A DNA stretch of 64,000 nucleotides. Origin: Escherichia coli. Lineage in GTDB: Bacteria > Pseudomonadota > Gammaproteobacteria > Enterobacterales > Enterobacteriaceae. The stretch is from NCBI RefSeq assembly GCF_036507355.1, contig NZ_AP027877.1; one strand, written 5' to 3'. Position 1 is the first letter of the stretch; each line of letters opens with the position of its first letter. The position numbers are program-made. Shown here piece by piece: positions 9,001 to 12,000 of this stretch.

Positions 9001-12000
9001 CAAATATGCTCAGGAACATAATTTGTCTCCGGTGCATCAGAGTGGTCGCCAGGAGCAACTGGAAAATCTGGTAAATCATTATCTGTTCGACAAATAACGG
9101 CTAACTGTGCAGTCCGTTGGCCCGGTTATCGGTAGCGATACCGGGCATCTTTTTAAGGAACGATCGATATGTATATCGGGATAGATCTTGGCACCTCGGG
9201 CGTAAAAGTTATTTTGCTCAACGAGCAGGGTGAGGTGGTTGCTTCGCAAACGGAAAAGCTGACCGTTTCGCGCCCGCATCCACTCTGGTCGGAACAAGAC
9301 CCGGAACAGTGGTGGCAGGCAACTGATCGCGCAATGAAAGCTCTGGGCGATCAGCATTCTCTGCAGGACGTTAAAGCATTGGGTATTGCCGGCCAGATGC
9401 ACGGAGCAACCTTACTGGATGCTCAACAACGGGTATTGCGCCCTGCCATTTTGTGGAACGACGGGCGCTGTGCGCAAGAGTGCACTTTGCTGGAAGCGAG
9501 AGTTCCGCAATCACGAGTGATTACCGGCAACCTGATGATGCCCGGATTTACTGCGCCTAAATTGCTATGGGTTCAGCGGCATGAGCCGGAGATATTCCGT
9601 CAAATCGACAAAGTATTATTACCGAAAGATTACTTGCGTCTGCGTATGACGGGGGAGTTTGCCAGCGATATGTCTGACGCAGCTGGCACCATGTGGCTGG
9701 ATGTCGCTAAGCGTGACTGGAGTGACGTCATGCTGCAGGCTTGCCACTTATCTCGTGACCAGATGCCAGCATTATACGAAGGCAGCGAAATTACTGGTGC
9801 TTTGTTACCTGAAGTTGCGAAAGCGTGGGGTATGGCGGCGGTGCCAGTTGTCGCAGGCGGTGGCGACAATGCAGCTGGTGCGGTTGGTGTGGGAATGGTT
9901 GATGCTAATCAGGCAATGTTATCGCTGGGGACGTCGGGGGTCTATTTTGCTGTCAGCGAAGGGTTTTTAAGCAAGCCAGAAAGCGCCGTACACAGCTTTT
10001 GCCATGCGCTACCGCAGCGTTGGCATTTAATGTCTGTAATGCTGAGTGCAGCGTCGTGTCTGGATTGGGCCGCGAAATTAACCGGCCTGAGCAATGTCCC
10101 AGCTTTAATCGCTGCAGCTCAACAGGCTGATGAAAGTGCCGAGCCAGTTTGGTTTCTGCCTTATCTTTCCGGCGAGCGTACGCCACACAATAATCCCCAG
10201 GCGAAGGGGGTTTTCTTTGGTTTGACTCATCAACATGGCCCCAATGAACTGGCGCGAGCAGTGCTGGAAGGCGTGGGTTATGCGCTGGCAGATGGCATGG
10301 ATGTCGTGCATGCCTGCGGCATTAAACCGCAAAGTGTTACGTTGATTGGTGGCGGGGCGCGTAGTGAGTACTGGCGTCAGATGCTGGCGGATATCAGCGG
10401 TCAGCAGCTCGATTACCGTACGGGGGGGGATGTGGGGCCAGCACTGGGCGCAGCAAGGCTGGCGCAGATTGCGGCGAATCCAGAGAAATCGCTCATTGAG
10501 TTGTTGCCGCAGCTACCGTTAGAACAGTCGCATCTACCAGATGCGCAGCGTTATGCCGCTTATCAGCCACGACGTGAAACATTCCGTCGCCTCTATCAGC
10601 AACTTCTGCCATTAATGGCGTAAACGTTATCCCCTGCCTGACCGGGTGGGGGATAATTCACATCTATATATCTCAGCAATTAATTAATATTTAGTATGAA
10701 TTTATTCTGAAAATCATTTGTTAATGGCATTTTTCAGTTTTGTCTTTCGTTGGTTACTCGTAATGTATCGCTGGTAGATATGGAGATCGTTATGAAAACC
10801 TCAAAAACTGTGGCAAAACTATTATTTGTTGTCGGGGCGCTGGTTTATCTGGTTGGGCTATGGATCTCATGCCCATTGTTGAGTGGAAAAGGCTATTTTC
10901 TTGGCGTGTTAATGACAGCAACTTTTGGCAACTATGCATATCTTCGCGCAGAAAAACTCGGGCAACTGGATAATTTTTTTACCCATATTTGCCAGTTAGT
11001 TGCGTTAATCACTATCGGTCTCTTGTTTATCGGTGTTTTAAATGCACCTATCAATGCTTATGAAATGGTGATCTACCCCATCGCCTTTTTTGTCTGCTTG
11101 TTTGGTCAAATGCGTTTGTTTCGCTCGGTATGAGCAACATAAAGCTCTTACACATTCAGGAATGAAAGGAATACTGTGATGGACAACAAAATATCAACCT
11201 ATTCACCGGCCTTTAGTATTGTGTCATGGATAGCTCTCGTTGGTGGTATCGTTACCTATCTGTTAGGGCTATGGAATGCAGAGATGCAGTTAAATGAAAA
11301 AGGATATTATTTTGCCGTACTGGTATTAGGACTGTTTTCTGCGGCGTCTTATCAAAAGACCGTTCGGGACAAGTATGAAGGCATACCGACCACTTCCATT
11401 TATTATATGACCTGCCTGACTGTCTTTATTATCTCTGTTACATTACTGATGGTAGGTCTGTGGAATGCGACATTATTACTCAGCGAAAAAGGTTTTTATG
11501 GACTGGCTTTCTTCTTAAGCTTGTTTGGTGCAGTAGCGGTGCAGAAAAATATTCGTGATGCCGGAATAAACCCACCAAAAGAAACACAGGTTACCCAGGA
11601 AGAATACAGCGAATAACTCACGTAAGCCCGGTCAGTCCAATGTGACCGGGCTTTTACTTAACTCACTAATCTGTTTCTGTCGATTCGTTGTACCAGCATA
11701 GAAAGTAACAAACTCGCTGCCAACGTTGCGCAAAAGATCCAAATAATATCCAGTATTGGCCAATTTTTAAGCTCAATTCCCCGGGTGCGCAGCGCATGGA
11801 TAATCAAGGCGTGGAATCCGTATATACCCAACGAATGGCGGGAGATTAAGCCAAGTCCGCGAATGGTACGCGTATCCAGCGTGTTTTTAACCAGAGTCAA
11901 TAGCGCGATTGCGCAGATAAAAACCATCGGCCCACAGTAAAGATACCAGGTATCGGCAAAATTTCCGCGCCACTGCAATTCATATAATGTCCCGCGAGAG

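Follow-up and report, generated by a model that had tools for sequence, protein, structure and literature searches.

Two short genes of Escherichia coli, yiaB and yiaA, lie side by side downstream of the xylose genes xylA and xylB and encode small membrane proteins that resemble one another. Their arrangement raises the question of how the resemblance arose, within each protein as well as between the two, and whether their position ties them to xylose. We addressed this question in a window of 64,000 nucleotides (the whole stretch of DNA that was analysed), which comes from the E. coli chromosome and which over the yiaB–yiaA stretch is 99.9 % identical to O157:H7 and other strains. The annotation of the two genes is that given by RefSeq for a 99.9 %-identical locus.

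RESULTS

The yiaB–yiaA locus and its transcription signals

The genes of the region are arranged in the order xylA, xylB, yiaB, yiaA, wecH (on the opposite strand), ysaB and glyQ. The yiaB coding sequence (10792–11133, plus strand; 113 residues and a stop codon) is supported by its open reading frame, the RefSeq annotation, Pfam and NCBIfam, and that of yiaA (11179–11616, plus strand; 145 residues and a stop codon) by the same four sources and by an AF2 model; the gap between them is 45 nt. A GGAG sequence at 10782–10785, conserved in five genera, supports the ATG at 10792 as the start of yiaB. The span 10792–11616 given in an earlier note on this DNA coincides exactly with the two genes taken together, beginning at the start codon of yiaB and ending at the stop codon of yiaA, and the three peptides quoted there are all found in the two translations. 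Directly upstream of yiaB and on the same strand is xylB (9169–10623), and wecH (11658–12653) is convergent with yiaA. The yiaB–yiaA region has a match in 5425 of 5426 complete E. coli genomes.

A hairpin with a 14-bp stem (10626–10657, plus strand) is present just after the xylB stop codon, with a folding energy of −21.5 kcal/mol (z = −4.1), and in Citrobacter, Klebsiella and Superficieibacter the pairing of its stem is preserved through compensatory changes. It is probably the end of the xylAB transcript, setting yiaB apart. The T-run that follows it is present in Citrobacter and weak in E. coli, so that some read-through from xylB into yiaB is possible. A second hairpin (11622–11657, not assigned to a strand) lies between the convergent genes yiaA and wecH, is followed by the T-run TTTTACTT and has a folding energy of −21.2 kcal/mol (z = −5.5); it is the probable terminator of yiaA. 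Folding of the 45-nt gap between yiaB and yiaA revealed no hairpin comparable to the flanking ones. A consensus scan of 10400–11900 found no sigma-70-like site on the plus strand upstream of yiaB or yiaA, and the sole terminator-like site in the scan, inside yiaB, does not exceed chance level. In a published study of Lrp that used RNAP occupancy, each of the two genes is handled as a transcription unit in its own right, with a separate promoter (PMC10127797).

Family membership

Both proteins score above the gathering threshold (26.6 bits) of the Pfam family PF05360, a model of 53 positions, and both do so over two stretches (YiaA, 135.2 bits, E = 8.8e-40; YiaB, 44.3 bits, E = 2.1e-11). The two transmembrane helices and short conserved linker by which PF05360 is defined were found in YiaA and in YiaB by AF2 modelling, alignment and hydropathy, and each protein contains two such domains in tandem, i.e. 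a two-TMS unit duplicated to give four TMSs. At the level of NCBIfam the two are told apart: YiaA scores 197.6 bits on NF008482 (cut-off 150) and YiaB 169.8 bits on NF008492 (cut-off 130), and each falls under the cut-off when scored on the model of the other.

The internal repeat of YiaA

Alignment of the N-terminal half of YiaA with its C-terminal half gave a Smith–Waterman local score of 102, compared with 24.3 ± 4.7 for 2000 residue shuffles in which the hydrophobic composition was retained (z = 16.7). The earlier note had described YiaA as an internal duplication of a hydrophobic module and had proposed self-alignment as a check; by this check the self-similarity is significant, none of the 2000 shuffles being as good. 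Comparison of the profiles of the two modules with hhalign gave a probability of 99.8 % (E = 5e-29), the input for the profile work being 45 diverse YiaA homologues and 14 YiaB orthologues. The duplication thus holds, and only the module size of about 50 residues given in the note needs to be changed, the repeat period being 63 residues (189 nt, 63 codons) and the Pfam model 53 positions. The period is also visible in the DNA, where short in-register repeats at the sites coding for GLW and EKGY are 189 nt apart from module 1 to module 2 of yiaA.

Module 1 of YiaA (residues 9–66; 11203–11376, plus strand) consists of a helix (10–33), a turn and a second helix (38–66) ending in QKTVRD; module 2 (residues 72–129; 11392–11565, plus strand) has the same layout, with helices at 73–96 and 101–129 and QKNIRD at its end. 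The AF2 model, which is of high confidence (pLDDT 92.3, pTM 0.83), contains these four helices, 10–33, 38–66, 73–96 and 101–129, with those of each hairpin joined by a four-residue turn. The conserved hairpin can be written as a helix, a G-L-W-N-A-x3-L-(N/S)-E-K-G-(Y/F)-Y turn, a second helix and Q-K-x-V-R-D. Complete or near invariance among the 45 diverse homologues was found for G30, L31, Q59, K60, R63, D64, L94, E103, G105, F116, Q122, K123 and D127.

The mean number of K and R residues is 2.1 in the N-terminal tail, 3.0 in the middle loop and 2.8 in the C-proximal segment, compared with 1.2 and 1.0 in the two turns. Because K and R are enriched in the tails and the middle loop relative to the turns, we infer a topology with both termini inside, in which the WN...EKG turns would be periplasmic and the QKxVRD segments cytoplasmic. 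The four helices are likely to be in a pseudo-two-fold arrangement, and the even number of inner-membrane spans expected of TCDB family 9.B.44 is consistent with the K and R bias and the four predicted helices. TC class 9.B holds putative, uncharacterised transporters. Reporter-fusion data are reportedly available from a global study of inner-membrane topology in E. coli.

YiaB as a copy of the whole gene

By BLASTP, YiaB residues 7–113 align colinearly with YiaA residues 15–125 (31 % identity over 111 columns, E = 1e-12). In shuffle tests, with 0 of 2000 shuffles as good in each case, the N-terminal part of YiaB resembles that of YiaA (z = 9.4), the C-terminal parts resemble each other (z = 11.9) and the C-terminal part of YiaA resembles the N-terminal part of YiaB (z = 7.3). 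The profile comparisons keep the same register, the N-terminal half of YiaB matching the N-module of YiaA (98.3 %, E = 2.4e-14) better than the C-module (95.6 %), and its C-terminal half matching the C-module (97.7 %, E = 1.8e-12) better than the N-module (94.8 %). In the DNA, short in-register repeats at the sites coding for GLW and EKGY are 411 nt apart from yiaB to yiaA, and a repeat pair at 11083–11106 and 11506–11529 joins module 2 of yiaB to yiaA. The tandem paralogy of the two genes proposed in the earlier note is therefore upheld by BLASTP, shuffles and profiles alike.

Module 1 of YiaB (residues 5–56; 10804–10959, plus strand) is a helix, a GLW..CPLLSGKGYF turn and a helix, and its G(L/I)W..CPL.SGKGYFLGVL core is invariant in all 14 orthologues. 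Module 2 (residues 61–110; 10972–11121, plus strand) is a degenerate hairpin in which GVLNAPINAYEMVIY replaces GLWNA..LSEKGFY, so that E. coli YiaB lacks the WN...EKG second turn; QKxxRD has been lost from both modules. The AF2 model of YiaB, with a moderate mean pLDDT of 70, has four helices, at 5–26, 34–55, 61–84 and 89–110.

The earlier note had credited YiaB with a single module, and YiaB could indeed be read as one module followed by an unrelated hydrophobic tail, in which case a single-module gene would have been duplicated. The best Pfam stretch in YiaB covers only residues 6–51, and GVLNAPINAYEMVIY is unrecognizable by eye as a second turn. This reading is nevertheless extremely unlikely, as Pfam counts a second stretch, the BLASTP alignment takes in both halves, the C-terminal half is closer to the C-module of YiaA than to its N-module, the AF2 model has four helices, and orthologues retain the turn that E. 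coli has lost, Klebsiella-type YiaB keeping W..EK..Y in module 2 and Superficieibacter YiaB keeping GLWNEPIALSQKIIY. Another objection is that any two pairs of hydrophobic helices look alike, so that the resemblance of YiaA and YiaB would be an artefact of composition. L, V, G, F and A do abound in the segments compared, which are membrane helices, and between the two halves of YiaB itself no direct similarity was found (shuffle z = −0.2; hhalign 1.7 %). However, the z values of 16.7, 11.9, 9.4 and 7.3 were obtained against residue shuffles none of which did as well, the profile–profile E-values range from 5e-29 to 5e-8, and the shared positions extend beyond hydrophobic residues to the polar motifs WN, EKG and QKxxRD; the chance that composition explains the resemblance is negligible, and we rejected this explanation on the shuffle and profile tests.

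YiaA and YiaB have thus each been shown to consist of a transmembrane hairpin of about 55–63 residues that occurs twice, both times in the same orientation. Since YiaB carries both hairpins, it was the whole two-hairpin gene that was copied, and since it is colinear with the full length of YiaA, the gene was duplicated when the internal duplication had already taken place, and not before. Judged by its sequence, YiaB reproduces the two-module protein colinearly and in full, but its second module has decayed.

Distribution and selection

Two-module proteins with 54–68 % identity to YiaA of E. coli were found in Proteobacteria, Bacteroidota (many of them), Chloroflexi, Acidobacteria and Bacillota; the groups in which they occur at this level of identity include Enterobacterales, Beta- and Gammaproteobacteria, Neobacillus, Campylobacteraceae and Desulfamplus. 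A search of a species-representative genome collection, seeded with 12 closer YiaA sequences, yielded at least 566 confirmed yiaA-type loci across phyla, and YiaA-type proteins have 522 representatives at 50 % identity. As two-module proteins are spread over so many phyla, the duplication of the hairpin must be ancient. Among the loci examined, a tandem upstream yiaB was found only in those of Escherichia, Citrobacter (two), Klebsiella and Superficieibacter; relatives of YiaB form only 141 clusters, which belong to Escherichia, Citrobacter or Klebsiella wherever they are named. A Salmonella ChIP study lists a yiaB gene, with a SoxS ChIP site near it. The limited range of YiaB sequences shows the whole-gene duplication that gave rise to yiaB to be recent.

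Single-hairpin proteins of 79–90 residues were considered as surviving ancestors and rejected. Each is a singleton in which helix 1 of module 1 has become fused to helix 2 of module 2; they result from deletion between the repeats or from faulty assembly and do not constitute a lineage.

For the same species pairs, omega is 0.03–0.08 for yiaA and 0.14–0.23 for yiaB, values that rest on few pairs because synonymous sites are saturated, and dS undefined, for many pairs between genera. Over the same species pairs, dN of yiaB is about three times that of yiaA. On these substitution rates YiaB is constrained but relaxed, or has shifted in function.

Its three-fold faster evolution, narrow distribution and loss of motifs that are invariant in the rest of the family might instead mark YiaB as a functionless duplicate in decay. 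We regard this as very unlikely, given that the omega of yiaB is far under 1, that the reading frame is intact in 14 of 14 aligned orthologues, that these share 29 invariant columns, among which SGKGYFLGVL and the CPL ahead of it form a run of 12 residues, and that the region is present at a coverage of at least 80 % in 5300 of the 5426 complete E. coli genomes. The earlier note had proposed co-expression analysis with the adjacent xylAB genes, and on this line of thought yiaB and yiaA would be accessory to the xylose operon, sharing a transcript with xylAB and serving the uptake of xylose or tolerance to it. Their location immediately behind xylB and on its strand, the poor E. coli T-run after the xylB hairpin, with its possible read-through, and the synteny xylA–xylB–(yiaB)–yiaA–wecH are in keeping with this. 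That synteny, however, is confined to six enterobacterial loci among 80 compared: yiaA orthologues stand alone, in unrelated neighbourhoods, in Hafnia, Yersinia and Limnobaculum, and some 70 loci from other phyla are likewise in unrelated contexts. Moreover, compensatory changes maintain the hairpin after xylB, which in Citrobacter has a T-run behind it, and the published RNAP-occupancy study gives each of the two genes a transcription unit and promoter to itself (PMC10127797). A conserved linkage to xylAB, as expected of members of the xyl regulon, was thus not found. The link to xylAB is consequently not supported, a role in xylose metabolism is very unlikely, and yiaB and yiaA probably lie outside xylose catabolism.

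DISCUSSION

The history that these results show is one in which duplication of the hairpin came first, in the distant past, to be followed by recent copying of the complete two-hairpin gene. After the gene duplication, YiaB diverged about three times faster under purifying selection, keeping the CPL-SGKGYF first turn. Taken as a whole, this structural and evolutionary account of YiaAB, against which no observation speaks, is very probably the best explanation of the locus.

The repeat and the paralogy are real and ordinary, and are already catalogued in Pfam (PF05360), NCBIfam and TCDB (9.B.44). Indeed, yiaB and yiaA are the type locus of PF05360, the genes that gave the family its name. The 'yiaA/B two helix domain' of Pfam and the YiaAB family of TCDB are the same family as the proteins studied here and differ from them in nothing; the Pfam definition, two transmembrane helices and a conserved linker, is the module that the earlier note described. 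The YiaAB family (TC 9.B.44) has also been listed among duplications from two TMSs to four (PMC3061005, citing Saier 2003). The repeat is therefore correctly described but not new, and the discovery value of the observation is small. What is added to the prior catalogue is the order of events, the faster divergence of YiaB and the range of taxa to which the two genes in tandem are confined. The locus provides a tidy worked example of a membrane protein evolving in steps: one hairpin became two, the entire gene was then copied, and the copy decayed asymmetrically.

The c-subunits of F-type ATPases (TC 3.A.2) offer a parallel, and a single sentence of the same source names them together with YiaAB as examples of the route from two to four TMSs (PMC3061005). 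They too are built on a two-TMS hairpin that has been duplicated in tandem and in the same orientation to give four TMSs, with polar residues conserved in the turn, and their hairpin has been triplicated as well. However, a sequence relationship between the c-subunits and YiaAB is undetectable and a fold relationship is not significant, and YiaAB genes lie outside ATPase operons. The likeness would thus extend to the evolutionary route only, and ring formation by YiaA is conjectural. A two-to-four TMS origin is likewise given for the voltage-gated ion channel family (TC 1.A.1) (PMC3061005), but homology to YiaAB was not detected and the pore-loop signature of that family is missing from YiaAB.

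Context clustering of 80 yiaA-type loci did not find a partner family recurring across phyla. A recurring ABC ATPase cluster near yiaA-type genes was dismissed as paralogue noise, its distance and orientation being variable, and many other context clusters proved to be shadow open reading frames inside genus-level synteny. As a conserved partner gene is absent, with the single exception of a regulator gene in Bacteroidota, YiaA probably works alone and not as a component of a multi-gene system. Anti-phage defence models (PADLOC) gave no match. In 15 Bacteroidota loci (Chitinophagales, Cytophagales and Flavobacteriales), an orthologous gene of Crp/Fnr type, encoding cNMP_binding and HTH_Crp_2 domains, is located 79–159 nt upstream of the yiaA-type gene on the same strand. 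A divergent TPR-like gene lies upstream of the yiaA-type gene in ten loci, mostly of Flavobacteriaceae.

Our search of the literature found no experimental study of YiaA or YiaB function, only mentions in omics work. A YiaAB-domain gene was 26-fold up in Variovorax biofilm (PMC7494200), yiaB appears in the gene lists of a silver screen and an Ala-Ala screen, Klebsiella transcriptomes report yiaB as up- or down-regulated, and a yiaA mutation has been reported in acid-evolved E. coli. Most literature matches to 'yiaA' were discarded as functionally uninformative: they stemmed from misspelling of yjaA, a phylotyping marker, from a mutation of YIDD to YIAA or from gene lists. A structural search, solved transporters included, did not find a solved relative of the YiaA fold at a significant score.

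It is tempting to speculate on what such a protein does. Our working suggestion, which is tentative and about which we have considerable doubt, is that the paired polar clusters of YiaA serve to bind or conduct an ion, a small polar solute or a lipid head group, and that this membrane protein is non-essential and regulated. Regulation is suggested by the Crp/Fnr-type gene upstream in Bacteroidota and by the increase in Variovorax biofilm. On this suggestion YiaA would be a stand-alone, regulated, pseudo-two-fold protein of four helices, probably oligomeric, whose paired polar clusters would bind or conduct the small polar species, and YiaB, where present, would be a diverged partner or variant of YiaA. 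A bolder proposal, which we consider unlikely, is that YiaA-type proteins are a new kind of small pseudo-symmetric membrane channel or sensor, with YiaB perhaps a heteromeric modifying partner in enterobacteria. It draws on the cross-phylum identity of 54–68 % and an omega of about 0.05, which are unusual for a membrane protein of 145 residues; on the two invariant polar clusters on opposite faces of the membrane; on the absence of a solved structural relative; and on the dedicated regulator gene, with its cyclic-nucleotide-binding domain, directly upstream in many Bacteroidota.

The pairing with a Crp-like regulator in Bacteroidota and the invariant WN, EKG and QKxVRD residues provide concrete handles for the study of YiaA. 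A strongly conserved and widespread membrane protein of four predicted helices, YiaA is present in all but one of the 5426 complete E. coli genomes.

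Results and discussion

The sole recurrent neighbour of the YiaA family is a gene for a Crp/Fnr-type regulator, found in 15 Bacteroidota loci spread over three orders (L021, L031, L034, L036, L049, L056–L058, L060, L062, L065, L066 and L069–L071). In these loci the regulator gene always lies directly 5' of the YiaA-like gene on the same strand, at a distance of 79–159 nt, and its highly conserved product of about 187 aa carries cNMP_binding and HTH_Crp_2 domains. In ten loci, mostly from Flavobacteriaceae (L039, L046, L048, L061, L073, L076–L078, L085 and L086), the YiaA-like gene has upstream of it an opposite-strand gene whose product, about 493 aa long, shows weak TPR-like matches; in nine of the ten the two genes are adjacent.

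Around the Escherichia coli genes, a hairpin follows xylB (10626–10657), and compensatory substitutions preserve its stem at the equivalent position in four other genera (L009–L012). The T-run 3' of the stem is good in Citrobacter and weak in E. coli, and the structure is probably the xylAB terminator or a 3'-end stabilizer. Upstream of yiaB, the blocks ATGAATTTATTCTGAAA (10696–10712) and TTGTCTTT...TTAYTCRTAATGTAT (about 10735–10775) are kept in Escherichia and Citrobacter, while Klebsiella and Superficieibacter show partial conservation. A promoter scan of this upstream region revealed no canonical sigma-70 promoter, and the blocks may be an unusual promoter or else a site for a regulator. 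Elsewhere in the window, the six Rfam matches are all expected E. coli features: the sok antitoxin next to hokA (16386–16541, plus strand), the cspA thermoregulator (16824–17251, minus), a tRNA (34200–34273, plus), naRNA4 (34370–34451, minus), the ES036 sRNA (36687–36729, minus) and the rdlD antitoxin (42525–42590, minus). The csp gene at the thermoregulator is labelled cspE by PGAP in the O157 record.

Five single-hairpin proteins of 79–90 residues (P0168, which is Klebsiella pneumoniae HCL7558455.1, P0238, P0248, P0260 and P0223) have helix 1 of module 1 fused to helix 2 of module 2, as the result of an in-frame deletion between the repeats. Since every one of them is a singleton from one contig, they are rare variants or assembly errors and do not form a lineage. 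The 158 aa Paenibacillus homologues P0241 and P0389 were found on 52 contigs. Because their two modules share 47% identity and each is closer to the N-module of YiaA than to the C-module, their sequences suggest either a second, independent hairpin duplication in this lineage or gene conversion.

Within E. coli, an IS1 insertion splits yiaA in one environmental isolate (NZ_OZ197100.1, 810121–811997), annotated there as two YiaA/YiaB-family fragments and an IS1 transposase, and the yiaBA region is covered to less than 80% in about 125 of 5426 genomes. Together these observations indicate that yiaA is dispensable. E. coli YiaA (11179–11616) shares 54–68% identity with homologues from Bacteroidota, Chloroflexi, Acidobacteria and Neobacillus (L017–L087), much more than is usual for a membrane protein of this small size, and the phyletic distribution of these homologues is patchy. 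Such identity across phyla suggests that strong constraint, horizontal transfer or a combination of the two is at work.
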